DNA from: Acidimicrobiia bacterium UBA4744
GTDB lineage: Bacteria; Actinomycetota; Acidimicrobiia; Spongiisociales; UBA4744
Length of the DNA stretch: 64,000 nt
Direction: 5' to 3'
Assembly: GCA_002403855.1 (NCBI GenBank)
Contig: DHIO01000026.1
Span: forward strand, 183,627 to 247,626
Shown here: one piece after another, positions 51,391-62,905 of the stretch
How positions within the stretch are numbered: the stretch's first letter is position 1
How the letters are laid out: the number at the start of each line of letters is the position of its first letter
Notes under the pieces: model-generated
Database searches by the model: none
Seen by the model: the letters and a program-made list of their open reading frames with translations, nothing else
Told to the model about the DNA's origin: nothing
Position numbers and translations under genes: made by a program

Positions 51391-51738
51391 CTACCCTGCT
51401 CTGAACACCATCCCGTAGAACGTGTCGTAAGCGCTCTTGCGGACTGGTTTCACTTCACCGCGAACCGCCATGCCGATCCTGGGATCATCTACTTCGAGTT
51501 GTCCGGTGATTCGGAGGCCGTTCTCCAGCTCGACGATCCCCAGTCCCAGCGTCGGTACCTCGAACTCGGCCGGAAGGTTGTAGACCTTCGTGAAGGTCAG
51601 CAGCTTGCCGGTCTTCGGTAGGGGCACGAGGTCGAAGTCGAAGAAGTCGTTCTGACGGCATTCCTTGCACACCATTCTGAACGGATAGTGCAGGCGCCCG
51701 CACTTGCGGCACCGGTAGGCGTAGATATCTCGGATCAT
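51391..51738 (-). CDS. Zn-ribbon/OB-fold protein (DUF35 family)
   Basis: CRKCGRLHYPFRMVCKEC four-Cys ribbon followed by an OB-fold-length segment. ATGA overlap with the thiolase-like gene. Confidence 0.85.
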   Translation of the reverse strand: MIRDIYAYRCRKCGRLHYPFRMVCKECRQNDFFDFDLVPLPKTGKLLTFTKVYNLPAEFEVPTLGLGIVELENGLRITGQLEVDDPRIGMAVRGEVKPVRKSAYDTFYGMVFRAG

Positions 51739-52913
51739 CGCCCCTCCCTCACAAAGGTCAGGCACACAACGTTGTTGCCGAAGCCACCAAAATTGCAGGT
51801 GAATCCCACTTGGGGTCCGTCTACCTGGCGGTCGCCGGCTTCACCCCGGAGCTGGGTGACGATTTCGTGGGCTTGCGCAACTCCCGTAGCGCCCACGGGA
51901 TGCCCCTTCCCTTTCAACCCGCCGGACGGGTTGATCGGCAGTGACCCGTCTATCGCCGTTTCACCCTTCTCGAGAGCGACATGCCCTTCACCTTTCGGGA
52001 AGAAGCCGACCTCCTCGCTCTCGACGATCTCGAGAATGGTGAAGGCATCGTGTAGTTCCGCGACATCCACGTCCTCCGGCCTCAAACCGGCCATCTCGAA
52101 CGATTGGGCGGCCGCTCGGCGCACGGCCAACAGGTCGGTAGGCTCTTCTCTTTCGTGCACCGCATGGGTATCCGTTGCTTGACCGACCCCGGCCAGACGG
52201 ATCAGAGGGCGATCGATGGTCTTGGCCACGTCATCCGATACCAGGATGACGGCCGCTCCTCCATCCGACACGGGACACGCATCGAAGAACCGCAGGGGCT
52301 CGGCAACGTAGGGGTTGTTGGTCATGGCCTCCGGCGAGTCGAGGATGCCCTCAATCGTGATCGGTTGGTGCAGATGGGCGAACTCATTCAGCATGGCGTT
52401 GTTCTGGTTCTTGACCGCCACCATGGCGAGATGGCGCTCGGTGAGCCCGTACTTCTCCATATACAGGCGGGTGAACATCGCCGCGTGAGACGGCAACGTG
52501 ACCCCGTAGATGTACTCGGCCAGAGGGTGAGTGAGCGTGGCGACAAAATCCGTCGCTTCGAGATTGTTGACCTCCCGCATCCGCTCCGCACCGCTGACCA
52601 AGACCACGTCGTGGAGCCCGGACGCAACCGCCGCGAAGCCGGCCTTGAGGGCGGAAGCTCCCGAGGCCGGCCCGTTCTCGATCACCGCCGCGCCGGCCGG
52701 GGTAAGGCTCAGACTGTCCACCACGGCACTGGCCAGAGCCGTTTGGTGGTTCACTCGGGCGCTACCCATGTTGGCCACGTACAGGTGATCAACGTCCCTG
52801 ATACCCGCATCCTTCAGAGCCATCATCGCCGGGTAGGCGGCTATCTCGGACAAGGGGTACTCGAGACGCGTGAACGTAGTGATACCGATGCCTCCTACGT
52901 AGACGTCACGCAT
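51735..52913 (-). CDS. thiolase-like protein (SCP-x/nsLTP type), nucleophile Cys apparently replaced
   Basis: MRDVYVGGIGITTF start and C-terminal GHPVGATG and TCNFGGFG motifs. The segment expected to be N-x-C-A-S-G reads ENGPASGASA. The start was trimmed from the 459-aa track ORF to ATG 52913. Confidence 0.82.
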   Translation of the reverse strand: MRDVYVGGIGITTFTRLEYPLSEIAAYPAMMALKDAGIRDVDHLYVANMGSARVNHQTALASAVVDSLSLTPAGAAVIENGPASGASALKAGFAAVASGLHDVVLVSGAERMREVNNLEATDFVATLTHPLAEYIYGVTLPSHAAMFTRLYMEKYGLTERHLAMVAVKNQNNAMLNEFAHLHQPITIEGILDSPEAMTNNPYVAEPLRFFDACPVSDGGAAVILVSDDVAKTIDRPLIRLAGVGQATDTHAVHEREEPTDLLAVRRAAAQSFEMAGLRPEDVDVAELHDAFTILEIVESEEVGFFPKGEGHVALEKGETAIDGSLPINPSGGLKGKGHPVGATGVAQAHEIVTQLRGEAGDRQVDGPQVGFTCNFGGFGNNVVCLTFVREGR

Positions 52914-53664
52914 TGTCCGCCTCCCCTCCCAGCAAGGTCCGCTGCGCAATGAGGGCCGTCGCCGTGGGGTCATACAACGACCGGGTGGCCGCCAGCAGGT
53001 CGGCGGGTGGCGTCGGAGGGTCGGACGGAGGAAGGATCTTGGCCTCGGCCTTGGCCAGCATCTCCGGTGGGACCGGACGCCGCCCGACGACCAGGGTCGA
53101 CCGAGCTCGATCAAAGAGCTCCTTGGTCAGCGCCCACGAGGGCACCCCGCCTAGCTCGTGCGGCGTATCGAACCGTTTCTCGAGCTGATACTCGATCATC
53201 CAGCGGCGGAAACCGATCGGCGATTCGGCGACGATCAACACCTCCTGGTGCCCGAGAGTGTCGATGTGGTACTCCATCTTGGCGGCAAAGGCGTGCGCTC
53301 CTACCCGGAGTCCGCGCCGCAGGGCGATGGTGTGGAGCGACATGCCAAGACCGGGCGTCACCTCGCGCCCGTTGACGACGGCCACCAACTCTCCGTCGAC
53401 CTGGGCCACCAGCACATACTCGTCCTGCATCCGATGGCGGTAGTAGGCGAGGAGCTCGGCGTAGACCCGGGCCGCTACGACGTCGTAGAAGTCCCGCTCC
53501 ACGTGCAAAAGCGGCTCAATATGGCGCAGGACGTCCGGCACGTCGTCCCGGTCGATCTGCCGGACCACCATGTTCTCCCCGCTCGCCAGCGTCATGTACT
53601 TCGCTTCGAATGGCTTCAAGGGGTTGTCTACCGGTCGGAGAATCCTCTCCAGGTCAACTGCCAT
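52906..53664 (-). CDS. hypothetical protein, possible GNAT-fold acyltransferase with Pro-rich C-terminal extension
   Basis: 252 aa. ...VAVVNGREV...LHTIALRRGLRVGAHAF resembles a GNAT beta4-alpha3 acyl-CoA loop (R-x-x-G-x-G/A). 8-bp overlap with the thiolase-like gene. Confidence 0.5.
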   Translation of the reverse strand: MAVDLERILRPVDNPLKPFEAKYMTLASGENMVVRQIDRDDVPDVLRHIEPLLHVERDFYDVVAARVYAELLAYYRHRMQDEYVLVAQVDGELVAVVNGREVTPGLGMSLHTIALRRGLRVGAHAFAAKMEYHIDTLGHQEVLIVAESPIGFRRWMIEYQLEKRFDTPHELGGVPSWALTKELFDRARSTLVVGRRPVPPEMLAKAEAKILPPSDPPTPPADLLAATRSLYDPTATALIAQRTLLGGEADNA

Positions 53665-53679
53665 TGCGATTCATCTCCT

Positions 53680-56055
53680 TCACTCCTTCTCTGTCAATAT
53701 CGAGAGCACCACCTTCTCGGCAGTGATCGGCATCGAGGTGATGCGGACGCCTAGGGCGTCATTCACGGCGTTGCCGATGATCGGCGCCGCCGGGATCATG
53801 GTGTGTTCGCCCACTCCCCTGGCGCCGAACGGGCCATCCGGCTGGGCAACCTCGATGATGATCGGGATCGTCTCTTCCGGGATGTCGTGGGCCGTCGGGA
53901 TCTTGTAGTCGGTGAAGTTGGGATTCAGGAGACGCCCGTCGTCCCCGAAGCGCATGTCCTCGTAGAGGACCGTGGCCAAGCCCTGGACGATCCCACCGGT
54001 GATCTGCCCTTCGATCAGACTGGGATTGATCGCCTTGCCCACGTCGACGGCCAGCGCCACCTTCTTCACCATCATCCGGCCGGTCTCCCGGTCGATTTCC
54101 AGCACCACTCCTGCGGCTCCCACCGTGTAGTGGACGTTGGGATGACCGCCCTGACTGGTCTCGGGGTCGCTTCGCGTCGTGGTGAACTCAGGCATGAACT
54201 TGCCGGAGCCCACAATGGGGCCACCCTTGAATGTGCCGTCGGTATCCTCGAGCCCGTCGATGACGAAGTCTCTCAGTGGGAGCCGGAAGTCGGGATCGGT
54301 GCTGGACCGTACGCTCTCGTCCTCCAGGTACAACGATTCCTCTTCGTATCCGTGGACCCGATGCACCACGTCGAGGATCTTCTGGCGAGCCTCGACTGCC
54401 GCCGCATGGACCGCGTTGCCGCAGCTCCAGGTGACGTGCGATGCAACCGTCTGCCACTCGTACGGATTGCGGTCTGTGTCGGGTGTCTCGACCCGGATCT
54501 TCGCTGGAGGCACCGCCAGCACTTCACCGGCGATCTGGGCCATGGCGGTCAGATAGCCCTGACCGAGTTCCATTCCGGAGACGGTGATGTTGATACTGCC
54601 GTCCTCGTTGAACTTGAGGAACGACGCCGACGAGGCGTTGGGAGGCATGGCCGGAGCCTTCCAGAAGACGGCGAAGCCCTTTCCGATCGCTTTGTTGGGA
54701 TCATCCGAGGTCTCCTCCTTGCCCCATCCGATCGCGGCCGCCGTCCGATCGATGGCCTCGATCAGACCCGAGGGGTTCATCTCTGCGCCGTAGGCCAGGG
54801 TGTCGCTCTCTTCGATAGCGTTGTTGCGCCGGAATTCGACGGGGTCCATCCCGATGGCGTCTGCGACTCGGTCGACGTGCGACTCGAGCCCGAACGTGAA
54901 CTCCGAATACCCGAAGCCCCGGTACGGACCACCCGGCGGCAGATTGGTGTAGATGCACTTCGAGTCGATCCACACGTTCGGAATTCGATAGGGACCGGTA
55001 GCCGACAAGCCGGCTGCGTTGACTACGTTGGCTCCGTATTCGACGTAGGCGCCGGCATCCCAGTTGAGGATGTGCTTGAGGGCCGTGATCGTTCCGTCGT
55101 TCTTCACCCCCATCTTGATCCGAGCAACGACGCCCTGACGTTGGTAGGTGTTGTAGAACTCCTGTTCTCGAGTGAAACGGATCTTGACGGGATGTCCCTT
55201 CACCGCCGTCGCCAGGGCCGCTCCCATGATTTCCATCGAAACGCCGGCCTTACCTCCGAACCCACCTCCCACATAGGGGGTAATGACCCTGACGTCCTTG
55301 TGGGACAGGCCCAGCGGAGCGAGCGCCTCAGCAAACAGGTGTCGCTGGGTGTAGGGCGATTGTGATGCCGACCACATGGTCAACCGTCCGGAATGGTCGT
55401 ACAACCCAACGATCACATGCGGTTCGATGGCACAGTGAGCGTACCTCGGCACCCGATATTCGCCTTCCAGTATCAGATCGGCTTCGGCAAATCCCCTCTC
55501 AACATCACCTTTTCGAGTCTTGCGCCAGTGGGCGATGTTTGTGTTGTCGTGCGGGTAGAACCACGGAACGTGCGTATAGCCCCCGAGCTCGGGGTGGATC
55601 AATTCGCCGTCGGGCCGGAGCGCTTCGATCGGGTCGAGAATCGGTGGTAGTTCCTGGTACGTAACCTCGACGAGCTTGGCGGCTCGTTTGGCCACCTTCG
55701 GATCACGAGCGACGACCGCGGCCACCTGTTCGCCGACGAAGCGGACCCGATCCTGGGCGAAGATGTACCGGTCCTTCATGTACAGGCCGAATCTGAAGGG
55801 AAAATCCATGCCCGTAACGACTTTGGTGACTCCGGGCACGGCCTCTGCGGCGGAGGTGTCGATGCTCTGGATCAGACCGTTGGCCAGGGGGCTCTCAACG
55901 ATCTCCGCGTGCAGAAGGTCGGGACCGAAGTCCAGGTCGTCCACGTACCGCGCCGCGCCCGAGACCTTCTCCAACCCATCGACTCTCACCGCCGGCTTGC
56001 CGACGAAATCCAGGTCACGGGTGCTTAGTTCCTCAAACGGTCTCACAGTGCTCAT
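53680..56055 (-). CDS. xanthine dehydrogenase family molybdopterin-binding large subunit (candidate uracil/thymine dehydrogenase)
   Basis: GKPAVRVDGLEKVSGAARYVDD hammerhead start and VGGGFGGK MoCo-domain motif. 791 aa from ATG 56055, which overlaps the FeS subunit stop (ATGA). Confidence 0.88.
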   Translation of the reverse strand: MSTVRPFEELSTRDLDFVGKPAVRVDGLEKVSGAARYVDDLDFGPDLLHAEIVESPLANGLIQSIDTSAAEAVPGVTKVVTGMDFPFRFGLYMKDRYIFAQDRVRFVGEQVAAVVARDPKVAKRAAKLVEVTYQELPPILDPIEALRPDGELIHPELGGYTHVPWFYPHDNTNIAHWRKTRKGDVERGFAEADLILEGEYRVPRYAHCAIEPHVIVGLYDHSGRLTMWSASQSPYTQRHLFAEALAPLGLSHKDVRVITPYVGGGFGGKAGVSMEIMGAALATAVKGHPVKIRFTREQEFYNTYQRQGVVARIKMGVKNDGTITALKHILNWDAGAYVEYGANVVNAAGLSATGPYRIPNVWIDSKCIYTNLPPGGPYRGFGYSEFTFGLESHVDRVADAIGMDPVEFRRNNAIEESDTLAYGAEMNPSGLIEAIDRTAAAIGWGKEETSDDPNKAIGKGFAVFWKAPAMPPNASSASFLKFNEDGSINITVSGMELGQGYLTAMAQIAGEVLAVPPAKIRVETPDTDRNPYEWQTVASHVTWSCGNAVHAAAVEARQKILDVVHRVHGYEEESLYLEDESVRSSTDPDFRLPLRDFVIDGLEDTDGTFKGGPIVGSGKFMPEFTTTRSDPETSQGGHPNVHYTVGAAGVVLEIDRETGRMMVKKVALAVDVGKAINPSLIEGQITGGIVQGLATVLYEDMRFGDDGRLLNPNFTDYKIPTAHDIPEETIPIIIEVAQPDGPFGARGVGEHTMIPAAPIIGNAVNDALGVRITSMPITAEKVVLSILTEKE

Positions 56056-56528
56056 CGGGCTGCCCTTCCCGCGGCGTTCGCCGCCGCCAGCACGGCCTCG
56101 ATGATCGGGGCGTATCCGGTACAGCGACAGAGGTTTCCTCCGATCGCCTCCTGTACGTCTTCCCGCGTTGGGTTCGGTTTCTCCTCCAGGAGTTCGGCGG
56201 CCGCCAGCACGATTCCGGGCGTGCAGAAGCCGCACTGGAAGGAGTTCAGGTCCACGAAGAACTGCTGGAGGGACGTGAGTCCGTCATCGTCGAGACCCTC
56301 GATCGTCGTTACCTCATGCCCGTCGGCTTCCACGGAGAGCACCAGACAACTCCGCACCGTGCGGCCCTCGAGCAGCACCGTGCAGCTGCCGCAATCTCCA
56401 CGCTCGCATCCGATTTTGGGGCTCTTCACGCCTACCTTGGATCGGAGCGTTTCGAGAAGCACATCGTTGGGTTCGACCGACAGCAACCATGGGTCGCCGT
56501 TGACGGTGACCGAGATATCCATGCGCAT
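56052..56528 (-). CDS. (2Fe-2S)-binding small subunit of the molybdo-dehydrogenase
   Basis: GCERGDCGSCTV plant-type cluster. CGFCTPG ... CRCTGY second cluster. Confidence 0.9.
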   Translation of the reverse strand: MRMDISVTVNGDPWLLSVEPNDVLLETLRSKVGVKSPKIGCERGDCGSCTVLLEGRTVRSCLVLSVEADGHEVTTIEGLDDDGLTSLQQFFVDLNSFQCGFCTPGIVLAAAELLEEKPNPTREDVQEAIGGNLCRCTGYAPIIEAVLAAANAAGRAAR

Positions 56529-56531
56529 CCC

Positions 56532-57422
56532 CTACATCAAGTTGGTTCCGTAGGAAGGCCCGGTACCTTCCAGACGTTCTACCGAGGCCTTCAGACCCCG
56601 CTGCAACATGACCTCCGACATTCGCAATCGGTATTCCTTCGTCGCCCGCATGTCGGTGATGGGCAAGATCTCTTCGCGCACGAGCCCCATTGCTTCGGCA
56701 ACCAGCCCCGGGTCGAGCGCCCTGCCCATCAGGAGGGCTTCGATGCGTCTTGCTCGGACCGGCGTAGCGGCTACTGCTCCGAAGGCCAAGCGAAAAAGAT
56801 GGTCGGGAGGCGCCAGGACGGACACGCTGGCCTGAGCCAAGTCCTCACCTTCATACCGACTGAGTCGAACGTAGGCGGCGCCGTGACCGCCCACAGGAAC
56901 CGGGACCACCACCTTGGTCACGATCTCGCCACGGGCGAGCGCCGTCTCTCGAGGGCCGAGAAACCACTCGTGGATCGGAATCCGGCGGGGACCATTCGGT
57001 CCGACGACGTAGACCGCTGCGTCGTACACGAGGAGGACCGGCCCCCCATCACAGGAGGGAACGGCGGAGCAGATATTCCCCACCAGCGTGGCTCGATTGC
57101 GGATCCCGGTGGACCCCACGGTTCCCGCCATTTCATGGATGAGAGGGAGCCGGGTGCGGATCAGCTCCGAGTTGAGCAGATCAGAGAAGGTGACCAACGA
57201 ACCGATGGCGACGGCGTCGCCCTCGTCGACAATGTCGCCTAGACCCTCGATCTGTTTGATATCGACGAGCAAATCCGGGGCGATCGCTTCATCCCGCAGC
57301 CAGGCCACCAGATCGGTACCCCCCGCCAGCACCCGGACCTCTCCGGCGTGCCCGGAGAGCATCCGGACGGCCTCGTCCAGCGTCTCCGGCCGCTGGTAGT
57401 CGAACACCTGGGCGATCGTCAT
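56532..57422 (-). CDS. FAD-binding (CoxM/XdhB-like) medium subunit of the molybdo-dehydrogenase
   Basis: FDYQRPETLDEA...VLAGGTDL PCMH-type FAD-binding start. AAGGAG 6 nt upstream of ATG 57422. Confidence 0.85.
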   Translation of the reverse strand: MTIAQVFDYQRPETLDEAVRMLSGHAGEVRVLAGGTDLVAWLRDEAIAPDLLVDIKQIEGLGDIVDEGDAVAIGSLVTFSDLLNSELIRTRLPLIHEMAGTVGSTGIRNRATLVGNICSAVPSCDGGPVLLVYDAAVYVVGPNGPRRIPIHEWFLGPRETALARGEIVTKVVVPVPVGGHGAAYVRLSRYEGEDLAQASVSVLAPPDHLFRLAFGAVAATPVRARRIEALLMGRALDPGLVAEAMGLVREEILPITDMRATKEYRLRMSEVMLQRGLKASVERLEGTGPSYGTNLM

Positions 57423-57531
57423 ACGACGCTCCTTATCGGTCGTTTTCGCCAAAACTACGCTCTTCGACTGGACCCGTGCGGCCCGCCCGGGGGCCCGACG
57501 AGCCCACTATGGCGCCCGCCCGGCCGCCGGA

Positions 57532-58953
57532 TCAGGCAGCGGCATCATCCGACAACCGCCGAGCCAGCGATTTGACGGCATCTGCGAAACACTCCATCGG
57601 CGCCTCGACCAAGCCGGCGCCGACCATGCCCACCCCTGCTTCCTTGCCTGCTATCCCGGTATTGATTTGCGGAAGAACGCCGGTGCGGGCCACCAACGTG
57701 GCGTCGATCCCGGTGGGCGTGCCCCGGAACTCGAGGATGGGAATCTGGTACGAGGGATGTTCCGCCATGGTGATCTCGTACATGGCCAGGGTCCGCTGGA
57801 CGGCGCCGGCGGCCGTGCCGCCGACAAACCCGACGATGGCCGGCGAGGCGGCCATCGCGAAACCGCCCAGACCGATCGTCTCGGTGATGGCCGAATCCCC
57901 GATGTCCGGATTGGCATCGTCGGCGGTAAACGACCCCAGGTACAATCCGTCCACGACGGGTGCCGGGGCCGTGAACCAACGGCCGCCGGTCCCCGAGACT
58001 CGGATCCCGAACTCCGTCCCGTTGCGGGCCATCGTGGTGACGAGGCTGGAGTACTCGATCCCGGATGCGGCATCAACGATCAGCTTCCCTGCCGCCATCA
58101 CCACGTTGAGCATGAAGTGGTCGTTCGAGTCGACGAACGAATAGACCGCCGAACGATCGGCCACCGTTGCGACATCACTCTCGACCAGAGCCGCGCCGAT
58201 TGCCCTGAGCAGCAGTGAGGTGCCGGCCCGGTTGCGGTTGTGCCCATCGTCCCCCATCTGCAGCGCTTGTGCAATCAACGATCGAAGGTCGAGCGGTCCG
58301 GATCGGCGCAGAGCATCACCTATCACCGGCCCGAGTACCCGCTCCATCCACCGGAGCCGGTCGATGACCTCGGGCGCATACGCACCGTATCGGAGGACTT
58401 TGCCCAGGCCTTCGTTGAGAGTCGAGTAGGCCACCCCCCCGGTGGCGGGATTCTCAACCACCAGAACGGGCATGGAAGGGCTGATGACGCCGGCCATGGG
58501 ACCAGCCGCCCGGTGATGGTGGCAGGGAGAAAGCTCTACCCCCCCGGCCGCCAGCTTGGACGCCGCCTCCTCGGGTGTGGCGGCGAGTCGCTCATAGAGC
58601 ATGGCACCTATCAGAGCGCCCCGCATCGGTCCGCTGGCCTGTTCCCAGGAGAGCGGAGGTCCGGCGTGGAGAAAGGTTCGCCCGGCAAGACCGGGTACCA
58701 CCTCGCCGGCCGGGAGCACATCCACCAGATGGGGACGAACTTCGAGTAACCGGGCGATGGCAATCTCATTGGCTTCCGCGACCTTCGGACTGGCAGCGAG
58801 CCCTGCCAGAGCTACTTCCGTTCCGCCGAACGGTGGACGCCAATCGATCCTGTGCACTGCGACGCTTTGAGCGCCGAGCGCGGCAGCGAGCACCTCGATC
58901 CCGGCCGTCACGACCACCGGCTCGGCGTGGAGAAGACGTTCGAGCTCACCCAT
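57532..58953 (-). CDS. DUF1116 protein (YlbE/AllG-like)
   Basis: LHAGPP, PCHHH..AGPMAG, NEGLGKVLRYGAY, GDSAITETIGLGG and INTGIAGKEAGVG blocks match my memory of E. coli YlbE along the whole length. ATG 58953 overlaps the FdrA stop by 8 bp. Confidence 0.8.
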   Translation of the reverse strand: MGELERLLHAEPVVVTAGIEVLAAALGAQSVAVHRIDWRPPFGGTEVALAGLAASPKVAEANEIAIARLLEVRPHLVDVLPAGEVVPGLAGRTFLHAGPPLSWEQASGPMRGALIGAMLYERLAATPEEAASKLAAGGVELSPCHHHRAAGPMAGVISPSMPVLVVENPATGGVAYSTLNEGLGKVLRYGAYAPEVIDRLRWMERVLGPVIGDALRRSGPLDLRSLIAQALQMGDDGHNRNRAGTSLLLRAIGAALVESDVATVADRSAVYSFVDSNDHFMLNVVMAAGKLIVDAASGIEYSSLVTTMARNGTEFGIRVSGTGGRWFTAPAPVVDGLYLGSFTADDANPDIGDSAITETIGLGGFAMAASPAIVGFVGGTAAGAVQRTLAMYEITMAEHPSYQIPILEFRGTPTGIDATLVARTGVLPQINTGIAGKEAGVGMVGAGLVEAPMECFADAVKSLARRLSDDAAA

Positions 58954-60379
58954 CGGCCACCTCATCGACCATCGACACTGCATGACGCGCTGCTGCAGCG
59001 TTGGACAGCCAGACGGCCGCCCCGGCCTCGTTGAGAACCCGGGCCTGTCGATCACGGTCCTGGGGGTCGCCGTTGGTTCCACAGAGCGATACCACCACTG
59101 CGGCCCCTTCCGCAGCAGCGTCGGCGATCACGGGAGCAAGTTCGGAGGCCGGATCGGGGTGAGCCCCGTGCCCGAGAACGACGTCGAGCAAGATGACGCC
59201 GACGCGAGAGTCGCGACCCGCCGCGGCCAGACGCTGCAGTCTCAACCGCTGGTCGATCATCGGGTGCGCCCGCCCGCGGGTGTATTCGTCCTCTCCATAG
59301 TCGATGATCGTGTGGCCGGCGCCTCGTTCCTCCCGGCCGACCTCCCCCAAAGCGCCGACCGCCAAGCCGACGGCCTCACTGCCGAGACTGCCACCGGAGA
59401 AGAGACCTCTGAGCACCCCCGGCCGATGGCCGTCCGTCGGGGCCGGCCAGGAGGCATAGGCGGGCACAGCTTTGCCGAGTAGATCGAGCGTCCGGCCGAC
59501 TGCTCCCTCCAGGGTTACTCCCTCTTCGCCGAGATAGGCGAGCACGGTCGGTGTCACGCATTCCGCGGCGGCCGCTCGAACGCGTTCGGCTACCTCCGGA
59601 GCGGGCGGTTTCGAGGCCACGATCAGCACTTCGGTGCTGGGATCGGCGTCCAATGCCTCCAGTCCCCGCAAAGTGGACAATCCCCCCACTTCGACGGAAA
59701 GGTCGTGGCTTCCGGTGCCCAGGGCGTTGCGAACACCGACCCCGGCATCATCGAGCAGACAGCAGAGTTGCTGGATCCCGGTCCCGGCCGCACCAACGAT
59801 GCCGACCGGGCCGGGTTGCACCACGTTGGCGAACCCGAGCCCGACTCCGTTGACGATGGCGGTACCACAGTCGGGGCCCATGACGAGAAGGCCCAACCGG
59901 TCGGCCGACCGTTTCAGCTGAACCTCCTGAGCGATCGGGACGTTGTCGCTGAACACCATCACGTCGAGACCATGCCGGAGAGCATCCATAGCTTCGACAA
60001 AAGCATGCTCTCCCGGAACCGAGATCAACGCGAGAGTGGCTTCCGAGGCGACGGATCCGATCACATGCGCGGCCGGCGTGGCCAGCATTGGGGAGTCCCG
60101 TACGGCTTTCGCGACCAGAGCCTCCTGCAAGATGAGACGGGCATGAGCCACGGCCGGTTCGTCCACGGCTCGCACCGCGATGATCAGGTCGTTGGGTCCG
60201 GCCGCAGCGATCGCTTCCGGATCGAACCCCATCTCTGCCAGCAGATCACAATTGAGGTCGGTCGCCATCGCCACCAATGCCTCTTCGACTCCAGCAGCCT
60301 GTTGCAGAGCCCGGCTTGCTTGCATGAGCCGCACAGAGTCGTGGTACGTGCCGCGCCGAACCTCAACATTGTCGATCAT
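58946..60379 (-). CDS. fdrA: FdrA/AllF-like protein (succinyl-CoA-synthetase-alpha-like)
   Basis: The N-terminus ...RRGTYHDSVRLMQASRAL... is like E. coli FdrA. Central CoA-ligase-like GPDCGTAI and GIVGAAGTG motifs. Confidence 0.85.
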   Translation of the reverse strand: MIDNVEVRRGTYHDSVRLMQASRALQQAAGVEEALVAMATDLNCDLLAEMGFDPEAIAAAGPNDLIIAVRAVDEPAVAHARLILQEALVAKAVRDSPMLATPAAHVIGSVASEATLALISVPGEHAFVEAMDALRHGLDVMVFSDNVPIAQEVQLKRSADRLGLLVMGPDCGTAIVNGVGLGFANVVQPGPVGIVGAAGTGIQQLCCLLDDAGVGVRNALGTGSHDLSVEVGGLSTLRGLEALDADPSTEVLIVASKPPAPEVAERVRAAAAECVTPTVLAYLGEEGVTLEGAVGRTLDLLGKAVPAYASWPAPTDGHRPGVLRGLFSGGSLGSEAVGLAVGALGEVGREERGAGHTIIDYGEDEYTRGRAHPMIDQRLRLQRLAAAGRDSRVGVILLDVVLGHGAHPDPASELAPVIADAAAEGAAVVVSLCGTNGDPQDRDRQARVLNEAGAAVWLSNAAAARHAVSMVDEVADG

Positions 60380-61206
60380 CTCGCAAGGAACTCCCCGGCC
60401 AGGAGAATGCCGCAGGCCGTCGCTATCCCCGACGAGTCGCCCATTCTGTACAGACCCATGACGGCGGCACCGAGATCACCTCTCCCGGTGAGCACCTGGA
60501 AGAAGGCCGCAACCGGATCGGCTACTTCTCCGGCCACCGCGTGACGAAGCAATGCCGCCGACAACGCCGTAGTGCGGAAGGGCGCCTCAGTGAGAACGAC
60601 GGGGGCTATCGCCGCAAGCATCCCACCGGCGCCGGGGGCCCCAACCGCCGGGCCCAGCAAGCGCAAGCCGGCCAACAAGCCGGCCAGCACATCGTCCCCT
60701 TCGGGCGTGAGTCCTTCGCCCTTCCCGAGCAGGGTGCACATGGCATGGCGAACGGCGGCGGGATCGTTCCTCTTCAACGACCGCCCCAGGCCCCCGTCTT
60801 CGACACACGCCAACAGGGGCCGGGCGGCCGCGCATCGTGCGGCCAGTGCCTCCGTAGTCGTTGGCTCCAGCGAGGGTCTCGGATCCCACCAGCGAATGAC
60901 ATTGGCCTTCACGCCCCCCATGCTGAGTCCGCCATCACCGACCACACACCGTTGTCCGGATGGGGAGCGGAGTTCATCGACCCGTTCCGTCACGGTGACC
61001 CCGTTGGGCAGACGGATGGCGTTGCGCCCCGAGAGGACTAGGACATGCCCGCCCGCCTGCAGCCAGGCGGCGTTGGACGAGACTCCCAGCAACACCCCGG
61101 GTTTGGAGGGGCCCTCCAGCAGATGGCGGACCCCCCGACTCGCCGCTGCCGGCACCGAAGCAGACGATGCGAATTCGGTTCCGGCCGTGTGCTGTCTGGC
61201 GCCCAT
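60376..61206 (-). CDS. DUF2877 protein (YlbF/AllH-like)
   Basis: GKGEGLTPEGDDVLAGLLAG motif typical of DUF2877. 4-bp overlap with the FdrA-like gene. It starts 10 nt after the barbiturase-family gene ends. Confidence 0.7.
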   Translation of the reverse strand: MGARQHTAGTEFASSASVPAAASRGVRHLLEGPSKPGVLLGVSSNAAWLQAGGHVLVLSGRNAIRLPNGVTVTERVDELRSPSGQRCVVGDGGLSMGGVKANVIRWWDPRPSLEPTTTEALAARCAAARPLLACVEDGGLGRSLKRNDPAAVRHAMCTLLGKGEGLTPEGDDVLAGLLAGLRLLGPAVGAPGAGGMLAAIAPVVLTEAPFRTTALSAALLRHAVAGEVADPVAAFFQVLTGRGDLGAAVMGLYRMGDSSGIATACGILLAGEFLAR

Positions 61207-61216
61207 CGGTCGAGTC

Positions 61217-62317
61217 TCAGCCGAGGTCGACGATGGCCGCTACCGGGCCGCCCCCGGAAGGCCCCTGGTGGATGGCCGCCACCGACACGAAAACTGCTGG
61301 ATCGCCGACGGCGGCCGCTACGACGCCGCCCACGGCTCCCTTGATGTGGCGATGGTGGTGCACGTCGGAGTCGTCGAGTGCCACCTGACGGCGTCCGCGC
61401 AGCTTGGCAGTCGGATCAGCCTCGCACTTCACGAATACGTTGACGAGCCGACCGTTGAGGTCCGTCGATCTCGCCCGCTCGGGAAGGTCGAGCCCAGCCG
61501 ATCGGATGGCGTCGTACACGGCCTCCAAGTCGAGGGCGTCCTTCATGACACTATGACCTATCCGATACCGCCCTCCCGCACCACGTACGTTGCCTACCAC
61601 CACCGTCTGGGCCCGATCGAGTTCGACACCGGACGAGCACGAAGCCACCGACGAATACAGCGACAGATCGTGGCCTATCTGCCGCTCCGCGGGAACGGTG
61701 CTCAGCTCGCCCAGCGCGTATCCGATACCGAGTCCCGAGGTCCCGTTGGAGATGTTCATAGACTCGAGTGGATCCTCGGTCACGACGGTATGCCCGCGCG
61801 ACTTGGCATCGTTGATGGTCTCCATCGTCAGAAGCGGTGTCTTGGTCTGCACGTAATGGACGTCGGCGGGGTCCGCGATGCCGGCTTCCTTCATTGCTTG
61901 TTTGACTCCCTCGGCGACCTTTTCGACCATCGCCGGCCGGCCGATGTCCTCGGGGAAGATGACCTCGCTCATGGAGTAGCCCACCGCCAGACGCGGCTCT
62001 CCCGAGGGGCTGGCATCGTCGGCTACCCGGGCAAACACCGTCGCATGAGGAGTGAGAACGCCGTCGGTTCCACCCGACCACACCATCGGGATCTCCTTGA
62101 CCACGTCGAGAGGCCGGGTTCCCATTTCCATCAGCACATCACGGAATGCCCGGTCGGCAAGGATCCTGGTGAAGTCATTGACTCCGCCGTTGCCCTCGGT
62201 CTTGCCGACGACGGCGATCACTTCGTCGGCGCCGAATACCCCTTCCTCGATCAGCGACTTCAATCCCGAGGCATCGGCGACGCTCTCGAGAACGACCTTG
62301 CGCACTTCGATAGTCAT
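61217..62317 (-). CDS. ring-opening amidohydrolase, barbiturase/cyanuric acid hydrolase (AtzD/TrzD) family
   Basis: [16 protein letters not shown] motif. Three-fold internal architecture with Ser/Lys contexts. 366 aa from ATG 62317, with GGGGGAGAG SD. The 597-aa track ORF is a 5' over-extension. Confidence 0.85.
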
Positions 62318-62467
62318 TACCGCTCTCCCCCGCAGTATCACGCCCGCCCGCCGTAGACCGTCAGGACGGATGCCATATGCACCAATACTCAGGCATGAGA
62401 GCGCCCGACAATAGAGAACAAAGACCCCTCCAACCTGCGGTTGGTCCGTCTGTGCCAGGCTGGGGGT

Positions 62468-62905
62468 ATGGACGCCTATCTGGAAGCAGCGATCGAAGAG
62501 GCAAGGGCCGGAATGGAGGAAGGAGGCATCCCCATCGGCTCCGTACTCGTCATCGACGGCGAGATCATTGGCAGAGGTCACAACCGTCGGGTGCAACGCG
62601 GCAGCCCCATTCTCCATGCCGAGATGGACTGCATAGACAACGCCGGCCGGCTGGAGGCCTTCGACTACCGACGAGCCGTGCTCTATTCGACGCTGTCCCC
62701 TTGCGACATGTGCAGCGGGGCCGTCCTCCTCTACCGAATCCCGAGAGTCGTCGTCGGCGAGCATCGAACGTTTCGCGGCCCCGAGGACTACCTCCGCTCT
62801 CGGGGGGTTGACATCGACATTGTCGACGACCCCACCTGTGTGCAACTGATGGAGACGTTCATCGCTACCCGGCCCGGGTTGTGGAACGAGGACATCGGCG
62901 AGTAG
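62468..62905 (+). CDS. cytosine deaminase, yeast Fcy1-type (CDA fold)
   Basis: HAEMD ... [11 protein letters not shown] zinc motif, VVVGE, and C-terminal [11 protein letters not shown] closely paralleling yeast Fcy1 (...RPQDWFEDIGE) as I remember it. ATG 62468 was preferred to TTG 62441. Confidence 0.85.

Follow-up and report, generated by a model that had tools for sequence, protein, structure and literature searches.

The 64,000-nt stretch of DNA analyzed here (the window; contig DHIO01000026.1, positions 183,627 to 247,626 of the forward strand, assembly GCA_002403855.1 of Acidimicrobiia bacterium UBA4744) contains a cluster of eleven genes: ten transcribed in the same direction on the minus strand (62317 down to 51391), and one divergent gene coding for a deaminase. 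From position 62317, the ten genes code for a barbiturase, for AllH-, AllF- and AllG-like proteins and, after a gap, for the FAD, [2Fe-2S] (FeS) and molybdopterin (Mo) subunits of a hydroxylase of the xanthine dehydrogenase (XDH) family, a GNAT-fold protein, a thiolase-like protein, and a DUF35 protein. The cluster is sharply bounded, since it is flanked by genes for a BipA GTPase and a DRG-like GTPase; the nearest public loci to the window are from Acidimicrobiia. As argued below, this cluster probably codes for the oxidative (barbiturate) catabolism of pyrimidines, in a variant form that departs from the Rhodococcus pathway once the ring has been opened.

The divergent gene (62468..62905, plus strand) encodes a 145-aa Fcy1-type cytosine deaminase (PF00383). 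Between its start codon and that of the barbiturase gene there is a 150-bp intergenic region (62318..62467), presumed to be the promoter or regulatory region. All the remaining genes are on the minus strand. The barbiturase gene (61217..62317) codes for a 366-aa ring-opening amidohydrolase with the Toblerone fold (PF09663), and it is followed, after a 10-nt gap, by the gene for the AllH-like subunit (DUF2877; 60376..61206, 276 aa; PF11392, 72.9 bits). The latter overlaps by 4 bp the gene for the AllF/FdrA-like subunit (58946..60379, 477 aa; Ligase_CoA and CoA_binding domains), which in turn overlaps by 8 bp that for the AllG-like subunit (DUF1116; 57532..58953, 473 aa; PF06545, 316 bits). A gap of 109 nt (57423..57531) splits the operon into two halves. 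The second half starts with the gene for the FAD-binding subunit of the Mo hydroxylase (56532..57422, 296 aa; PF00941 and PF03450), from which that of the [2Fe-2S] subunit (56052..56528, 156-158 aa; PF01799 and PF00111) is separated by 3 nt; a 4-bp overlap then leads to the gene for the molybdopterin subunit (53680..56055, 791 aa; PF01315, PF02738, and PF20256), our candidate for a uracil/thymine dehydrogenase. After 15 nt comes the gene for a 252-aa protein of a small unannotated family (52906..53664), assigned to the GNAT fold by its predicted structure. It overlaps by 8 bp the gene for the thiolase-like protein (51735..52913, 392 aa; matching 7YVY, with Pro82 for the nucleophilic Cys), and this one by 4 bp the gene for its DUF35 zinc-ribbon/OB-fold partner (51391..51738, 115 aa; PF12172 and PF01796).

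Five of the nine junctions within the run are overlaps, each of 4 or 8 bp, and an earlier reading of this DNA from its letters (the sequence-only reading) was fair in describing most junctions as overlapping. The eleven genes that it had delimited were borne out by gene calls, family searches, and an identical public contig, whose separate gene call gave the same products (366, 276, 477, 473, 296, 156, 791, and 252 aa). Its coordinates stood except for small corrections of start codons, which were placed at 58953 for the AllG-like gene, at 52913 for the thiolase-like gene, at 51738 instead of 51765 for DUF35, and at 56528 or 56522 for the FeS subunit. Its assignments to DUF2877, FdrA, and DUF1116 also held, under the present Pfam names AllH, AllF (HMA_AllF_N plus Ligase_CoA), and AllG. 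The divergent region 62318..62467 gave no sigma-70-like or Rfam match, a result that is uninformative for a high-GC actinobacterium, and no terminator-like or Rfam match was seen inside the gap at 57423..57531.

The product of 61217..62317 matched its family over the full length (PF09663, 475 bits over profile positions 1-358; TIGR02714, 502 bits). The sequence-only reading had left open whether this protein is a barbiturase or a cyanuric acid hydrolase of the AtzD type, and this could be resolved by comparison with all PDB chains and by inspection of the specificity residues. The protein scored 515.9 bits against the barbiturase of R. erythropolis (5HWE). All five cyanuric acid hydrolases compared in the same search scored 320.5 bits or less, among them TrzD (5T13, 320.5 bits), the Moorella enzyme (6BUM, 318 bits), AtzD (4BVQ, 262 bits), and the Azorhizobium enzyme (4NQ3, 231 bits). 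Barbiturase (Bar) and AtzD activities are separated by five active-site positions, which are R195/T321/R325/G345/G346 in AtzD and N/H/K/V/(S or A) in Bar (Peat et al., 2013; PMC3758960). Pairwise alignments, located in the sequence, gave N191/H322/K326/V346/A347 for the window hydrolase, that is, the full Bar signature and a residue different from that of AtzD at all five positions. At these positions the 80 barbiturase loci described below have NHKVA (73 loci) or NHKVG (7 loci). These results indicated that the protein is very probably a barbiturase (Group VI of the AtzD/Bar Toblerone-fold family), an assignment made from its sequence. It also passed the NCBIfam equivalog NF052395 "cyanuric acid amidohydrolase" (462 bits, cut-off 360), and this model fails to separate barbiturases from cyanuric acid hydrolases. 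Since NF052395 is passed despite the Bar signature, automatic (PGAP-style) annotation probably misnames the whole clade as AtzD, and barbiturases mislabeled in this way would inflate estimates of s-triazine degradation for soil and sediment metagenomes.

In order to follow the gene set in other organisms, species-representative genomes were scanned, which yielded 80 species loci with a barbiturase gene; the gene content of each locus was established by tblastn with the window proteins together with existing gene calls. In 57 of them the sequence downstream of barbiturase extended for 5 kb or more, and 41 were informative beyond AllG. AllF and AllG were encoded next to barbiturase in 50 of these 57 loci, as a barbiturase-AllH-AllF-AllG set, the seven exceptions being five Actinomadura/Spirillospora loci and the loci L033 and L080. 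An XDH of the type present in the window (type 1) was found in 29 of the 41 loci, followed by the GNAT, thiolase-like, and DUF35 genes where the locus extends far enough. In another eight, which lack the GNAT, thiolase-like, and DUF35 genes, the XDH is of a second type (Mo subunits 28-33% identical), and the remaining four showed no XDH in the neighborhood. The block XDH-GNAT-thiolase-DUF35 is placed upstream of the barbiturase gene, with the strand unchanged, in L043 and L045. Seven relatives contain, within the cluster, a gene for a permease of the uracil/xanthine family. Since it recurs in dozens of species, this gene arrangement is far beyond chance.

Co-occurrence was also analyzed in 301 sampled Acidimicrobiia genomes, which are related and so are not independent samples. 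Barbiturase was present in nine of them, and an AllG orthologue (at least 68% identity) in exactly the same nine. Ten genomes, namely these nine and G291, had the type-1 Mo subunit (73-79% identity) and likewise the 252-aa GNAT protein. The carriers are spread patchily across five families, which fits gain or loss of the cluster as a unit. Joint conservation of the genes, which the sequence-only reading had suggested as a check, was in this way confirmed both by the loci and by this near-perfect profile. The module of G291 (locus L097, C56:1-12000) lies about 1.4 kb from the start of its contig, and its pattern may stem from incomplete assembly or from a module that truly stands alone. Three further barbiturase clusters, 79-84% identical to those of Acidimicrobiia, came from metagenome-assembled genomes (MAGs) binned to Gemmatimonadales, Saprospiraceae, and Proteobacteria (L007, L026, and L046); in a tree of AllG, L007 and L026 stand beside Acidimicrobiia/Actinomycetota rows, which suggests mis-binned contigs. 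Two Haliangium loci formed a clade of their own and look more like real transfer.

The three subunits encoded at 53680-57422 show the architecture of Mo hydroxylases (FAD_binding_5/CO_deh_flav_C, Fer2/Fer2_2, and Ald_Xan_dh_C/MoCoBD_1/MoCoBD_2). The Mo subunit contains a GVGE motif at residues 747-750, with E750, which we take to be the catalytic glutamate motif of the XDH family. The enzyme scored below the cut-off of every curated NCBIfam equivalog for XDH, PucD, 4-hydroxybenzoyl-CoA reductase, carbon monoxide dehydrogenase, and aldehyde oxidoreductase. The best XDH equivalog was NF043082 (512 bits, cut-off 780), and the FAD and FeS subunits were likewise below their cut-offs. Identity with 4-hydroxybenzoyl-CoA reductase was considered and rejected, as the equivalog scores were half their cut-offs and the FAD subunit fitted XdhB better. 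Within the 301 sampled genomes, orthologues of the Mo subunit were confined to those bearing the cluster, even though XDH paralogues abound in the class. The divergent gene, which the sequence-only reading had called an Fcy1-type cytosine deaminase, proved to be one: its product scored 154 bits over residues 5-145 against yeast Fcy1 (1YSD/1UAQ) and 82 bits against TadA, and its zinc motifs are intact (HAE50-52 and PCDMC78-82). A deaminase gene adjoins barbiturase in only six of the 80 loci, those of the six closest species, and it appears to be a lineage-specific add-on to the cluster. The strict co-occurrence of the Mo enzyme with barbiturase, the convergent recruitment of the second type of XDH to the same position, and the nucleobase permease of relatives together with the cytosine deaminase here all point to uracil/thymine as the substrate. 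From this context and co-occurrence, the enzyme is a likely candidate for a uracil/thymine dehydrogenase, as the sequence-only reading had proposed for the XDH-like trio.

Barbiturase yields ureidomalonate, a malonyl analogue of oxalurate. In E. coli, AllF, AllG, and AllH form the oxamic transcarbamylase, which converts oxalurate and phosphate into carbamoyl phosphate and oxamate and is encoded together with the carbamate kinase AllK in allFGHK (Kim and Kim, 2024; PMC11326118). In the window, all three subunits are encoded beside barbiturase and not beside allC/allD/allE. The AllH-like protein, the sole AllH of the genome, is 34% identical to the C-terminal domain of E. coli YlbF/AllH, the AllF-like protein is 40% identical over 476 aa to FdrA/AllF, and the AllG-like protein is 47% identical to YlbE/AllG. 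In a quick maximum-likelihood tree of AllG, with long outgroup branches and an arbitrary root, all 56 of the 56 barbiturase-linked proteins fell on one side of a branch with a support of 99 in the Shimodaira-Hasegawa-like approximate likelihood ratio test (SH-aLRT), and E. coli YlbE and AllG homologues from barbiturase-less contexts fell on the other; sub-clades within the barbiturase-linked group tracked the type of XDH. A carbamate kinase gene is located between barbiturase and AllH in 11 of the 80 loci. In a complete Nitriliruptoraceae chromosome, for instance, the order is PucR, barbiturase, Xan_ur_permease, AA_kinase (carbamate kinase), AllH, AllF, AllG, and XDH. The genome from which the window comes contains an arcC equivalog unlinked to the cluster (373.7 bits, cut-off 358). 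In this genome neither urease alpha nor allophanate hydrolase was found above cut-off, and tblastn with E. coli AllC, AllD, and AllE gave no match at 97.4% completeness.

An authentic role in oxalurate (allantoin) metabolism is unlikely for these proteins, since allC/D/E were not found. Formation of carbamoyl phosphate is supported by the linked carbamate kinase of the 11 loci and the arcC equivalog, and by the single AllH, the lack of a urease alpha match, the lack of allC/D/E matches, and the separate AllG clade. On balance we favor, with some reserve, that AllHFG acts in place of ureidomalonase as a ureidomalonate phosphorylase ("malonamate carbamoyltransferase"). Other arrangements of these families were also seen. 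The carbamate kinase gene of the window's own genome (L092, C13:128000-145578) adjoins a gene of the ornithine carbamoyltransferase (OTCase) family. A second OTCase-family gene is present there too, as are genes for a GntR regulator and a 690-aa pyridoxal phosphate-dependent (PALP) enzyme, a set resembling carbamoyl phosphate-yielding catabolism of the YgeW/YgeX/YqeA type; the contig C13 also encodes three Bmp binding proteins and five paralogues of the XDH-family Mo subunit. At L095 (G042:C11:53000-72000), where barbiturase is missing, an AllG homologue (44% identity) is encoded between acetamidase/formamidase-family and glutamine synthetase-like genes; AllF is not clear there, and the DUF1116 family evidently occurs in other contexts.

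The 252-aa protein had no match in Pfam or NCBIfam, and phmmer against the PDB gave nothing meaningful. Its family has 172 representatives (E at or below 0.001), many of them fragments, among 1.84 billion proteins. An AlphaFold (AF2) model built from a 42-row alignment reached a predicted local distance difference test score (pLDDT) of 87.9, the single-sequence value being 36. Its top structural matches were all GNATs (1YRE: VIA Z 13.0, root-mean-square deviation 3.1 A over 160 residues), and the first Foldseek match was the GNAT domain of E. coli PatZ. The "GNAT-like" label of the sequence-only reading is thus upheld by the predicted fold. The loop RRGLRVGA (116-123) resembles, and does not match, the acyl-CoA motif A (Q/R-x-x-G-x-G/A). 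The thiolase-like protein was nearest to archaeal acetoacetyl-CoA thiolases, with 266 bits against 7YVY and 218 bits against 6ESQ. Thiolases have a nucleophilic Cys in a C-x-S/ASG motif; here IENGPASG aligned with IEAACASG, so that Pro82 takes the place of this Cys, and ENGPASG was invariant in all orthologues, even in one with 54% identity from a different context. Among the zinc-ribbon cysteines of the DUF35 protein there is no variation in C10, C13, or C24 and almost none in C27. Prediction of a complex of the thiolase-like, DUF35, and GNAT proteins gave scores of 0.54, 0.65, and 0.53, with one control at 0.39, and speaks neither for nor against their association.

Distant GNAT homologues occur in the contexts PNPOx-GNAT-thiolase-DUF35-AllH-AllF-AllG and thiolase-DUF35-GNAT. 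On the metagenome contig L090:1-18741, genes for ModE, ModABC, and MoaA/MoaE (molybdate uptake and molybdenum cofactor synthesis) are followed by those for an XDH (Mo-FAD-FeS), a GNAT homologue, AllF, AllG, AllH, and a Bmp-type ABC transporter; of these, AllF lies on the opposite strand. At L086:237-7490, a 41%-identical homologue is encoded after Bmp and a zinc alcohol dehydrogenase, and directly upstream of carboxyltransferase, OAD_gamma, biotin carrier, and OAD_beta genes (a Na+-pumping biotin decarboxylase), which hints that the GNAT family feeds a decarboxylation of malonyl or methylmalonyl type. Slow decarboxylation of malonyl-CoA is ascribed to the Cys-less thiolase-like protein TbSLP in PMC12329534, which cites Harijan (2016) for it. 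The GNAT contexts and that report suggest a module that puts the malonyl moiety on a thioester and decarboxylates it. Such a role for the three tail genes is speculative, and we consider it possible but doubtful. In the type-2 cluster L053, XDH is followed by CoxG, CN_hydrolase (a nitrilase-superfamily amidase), and hydantoinase A genes. This CN_hydrolase could be a malonamate-hydrolyzing counterpart of the GNAT/thiolase/DUF35 trio.

Biochemically, the oxidative pathway of pyrimidine degradation was already known in the 1950s. In the route that we propose for the cluster, cytosine would be deaminated to uracil by the Fcy1-type enzyme, and uracil or thymine would be hydroxylated at C6 by the Mo/FAD/[2Fe-2S] enzyme to barbiturate or 5-methylbarbiturate. 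Barbiturase would open the ring of barbiturate to ureidomalonate. This compound, an acyl-urea like oxalurate, would then be split with phosphate by the AllH/AllF/AllG homologues into carbamoyl phosphate and malonamate, and the carbamate kinase encoded elsewhere in the genome would convert carbamoyl phosphate into ATP, NH3, and CO2. Finally, the malonyl or malonamate fragment might be converted to a malonyl thioester and further to the acetyl level by the GNAT-fold, thiolase-like, and DUF35 proteins. Apart from the assignment of barbiturase, we infer all of these steps.

Several observations weigh against this proposal. The source of the window, with about 64% GC, is a MAG of an uncultured organism, 97.4% complete. 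The 109-nt gap falls between AllG and the FAD subunit, and the cluster as present in the window has no gene for a carbamate kinase, a permease, or a regulator; no Xan_ur_permease was found in the whole genome, and its only carbamate kinase gene lies beside an OTCase-family gene, in the context of another pathway. The AllF-like protein scored 410.5 bits against the FdrA model NF004760, under the cut-off of 433. Nothing in the sequence of the Mo subunit indicates uracil, its closest PDB match is the alpha subunit of 4-hydroxybenzoyl-CoA reductase (339 bits), and the genome has about ten XDH paralogues. With regard to gene association, in one annotated locus of a cultured Actinomadura barbiturase stands alone amid sigma-factor, aminotransferase, and shikimate genes. 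G291 has the type-1 XDH, GNAT, thiolase-like, and DUF35 genes, and barbiturase and AllG were looked for in its assembly and not found. No barbiturase is in view in the PNPOx context mentioned above, and none lies within 9 kb of the XDH-GNAT-AllFGH genes of L090.

Some of these points are accommodated by alternative readings of the substrates. A cyanuric acid/s-triazine cluster, in which the hydrolase would convert cyanurate to carboxybiuret and the AllFGH homologues would act on biuret-type ureides, had been kept by the sequence-only reading as its alternative. It could appeal to the score above cut-off with NF052395 and to some Nitrospira MAGs, in which the neighbors of biuret/triuret genes include AllFGH and carbamate kinase (PMC12625717). 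Nevertheless, barbiturase leads the PDB matches by almost 200 bits and the five specificity positions are Bar-like (N/H/K/V/A), with none like those of AtzD (R/T/R/G/G), and on these residues the cyanurate reading was ruled out; moreover, allophanate hydrolase was not found above cut-off in the genome, and the Mo hydroxylase would have no role in cyanurate breakdown. We therefore regard this alternative as extremely improbable and reject it. A less radical alternative would leave the core of the pathway unchanged and have the Mo enzyme hydroxylate some other heterocycle ending in a (substituted) barbiturate, such as 4,6-dihydroxypyrimidine, a hydroxypyrimidine, or a modified or natural-product pyrimidine. 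The substrate cannot be read from the sequence, the scores with XDH equivalogs are all below cut-off, and the closest structure is that of a CoA-thioester reductase; besides, the many XDH paralogues and Bmp-type transporters of the genome suggest broad use of N-heterocycles. On the other hand, the uracil/xanthine-family permease of the seven relatives and the adjacent cytosine deaminase argue for uracil, and the occurrence of two unrelated types of XDH in the same barbiturase context fits a common, simple substrate. We judge this alternative unlikely, although the most credible of the four considered here.

The other two alternatives concern how the parts of the cluster work together. The AllFGH homologues could form with the GNAT and thiolase-like proteins a CoA-dependent system by which ureidomalonate would give urea or carbamate along with malonyl-CoA, the latter then being turned into acetyl-CoA. 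This would agree with the CoA-binding and ligase domains of AllF, which are like those of succinyl-CoA synthetase, with the association of the GNAT family with AllFGH in three different contexts, and with the top Foldseek match, since in PatZ an acyl-CoA synthetase-like domain is fused to the GNAT domain. However, phosphorolysis is what has been characterized for the E. coli enzyme (PMC11326118), the carbamate kinase genes of the 11 loci sit between barbiturase and AllH, the type-2 clusters keep AllFGH without GNAT and thiolase genes, and no urease that could recover the nitrogen of urea was found in the genome; we thus find a CoA-dependent reaction rather improbable, a shade more so than another heterocyclic substrate. 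Less probable again is that two separate modules merely travel together, barbiturase-AllHFG for the use of barbiturate and XDH-GNAT-thiolase-DUF35 for an unrelated CoA-linked oxidation. The 109-nt gap, G291 with the second module but neither barbiturase nor AllG detected, and the four loci with barbiturase-AllHFG and no XDH nearby are what it would lead us to expect, but it is hard to reconcile with the near-perfect co-occurrence in the 301 genomes, with a block that keeps its strand even where its position is permuted (L043 and L045), and with AllG sub-clades that follow the type of XDH; in G291, the partners could lie past the contig break or be unassembled, though none was found elsewhere in that assembly.

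The barbiturase gene and the existence of the oxidative pathway were known already, and barbiturase was the only enzyme of the pathway with a gene in the literature covered. In that literature, with subscription journals mostly outside its coverage, we found no paper assigning genes to uracil/thymine dehydrogenase or ureidomalonase, linking barbiturase to AllFGH, describing an ATP-yielding route for barbiturate, or giving a function to the GNAT/Cys-to-Pro thiolase/DUF35 trio. The cluster might, as a tentative suggestion, provide both a first gene for the orphan EC 1.17.99.4 and an energy-conserving branch formed by AllFGH phosphorolysis and a malonyl-to-acetyl trio module. It makes testable which Mo enzyme oxidizes uracil, whether ureidomalonate is split with phosphate (with gain of ATP) or hydrolyzed to urea, and what the unannotated GNAT/Cys-less thiolase/DUF35 trio does. 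If the proposal is true, ureidomalonate would be a second class of substrate for the newly discovered AllFGH transcarbamylase.

Comparison with known systems places the proposed pathway closest to that of R. erythropolis JCM 3132, which, as far as PMC3758960 describes it citing Soong et al. (2001/2002), comprises uracil/thymine dehydrogenase (EC 1.17.99.4), barbiturase (EC 3.5.2.1), and ureidomalonase. The sequence-only reading had matched the cluster to this pathway, and the match stands for barbiturase, where the window encodes an orthologue with an identical specificity signature, and is supported for the candidate dehydrogenase, an oxidizing enzyme being expected upstream of the barbiturase step. 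It probably does not extend to the steps after ureidomalonate: the window has no candidate for a ureidomalonase hydrolase, AllH/F/G homologues occupy that position, and carbamoyl phosphate and malonamate are predicted as products by phosphorolysis, whereas urea and malonate are formed in Rhodococcus. With AtzD and TrzD the window hydrolase shares the fold, the Pfam family, and the conserved Ser-Lys dyad motifs, but with N/H/K/V/A for R/T/R/G/G and scores about 200 bits lower it falls outside the cyanurate-active groups, although NF052395 would name it there. Xanthine dehydrogenase, nicotinate dehydrogenase, and 4-hydroxybenzoyl-CoA reductase have, like the Mo enzyme of the window, FAD, 2x[2Fe-2S], and molybdenum cofactor (Moco) subunits and the GVGE glutamate; the window enzyme differs from these XDH-family hydroxylases in lying under all the curated cut-offs and in having orthologues restricted to genomes with the barbiturase cluster, nine of the ten with barbiturase itself.

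With E. coli AllFGH/AllK, the cluster shares three homologous subunits, an acyl-urea as predicted substrate, one CH2 longer than oxalurate, and, in the 11 related loci, a linked carbamate kinase. It differs in the order H-F-G, in the unlinked carbamate kinase of the window's genome, in an AllF about 77 residues shorter at the C-terminus and an AllG with an N-terminal extension of about 55 residues, and in the absence of allC/D/E from that genome, the barbiturase-linked AllG forming a separate clade. Finally, the tail genes resemble known systems of a thiolase, a DUF35 protein, and a third enzyme in the archaeal-type thiolase fold, the four-Cys DUF35 protein, and the translational coupling. In the window, however, the thiolase-like protein has an invariant Pro for the nucleophilic Cys, the third partner is a GNAT-fold protein and not a 3-hydroxy-3-methylglutaryl-CoA synthase or a hydratase, and the context is that of pyrimidine instead of isoprenoid or steroid metabolism.

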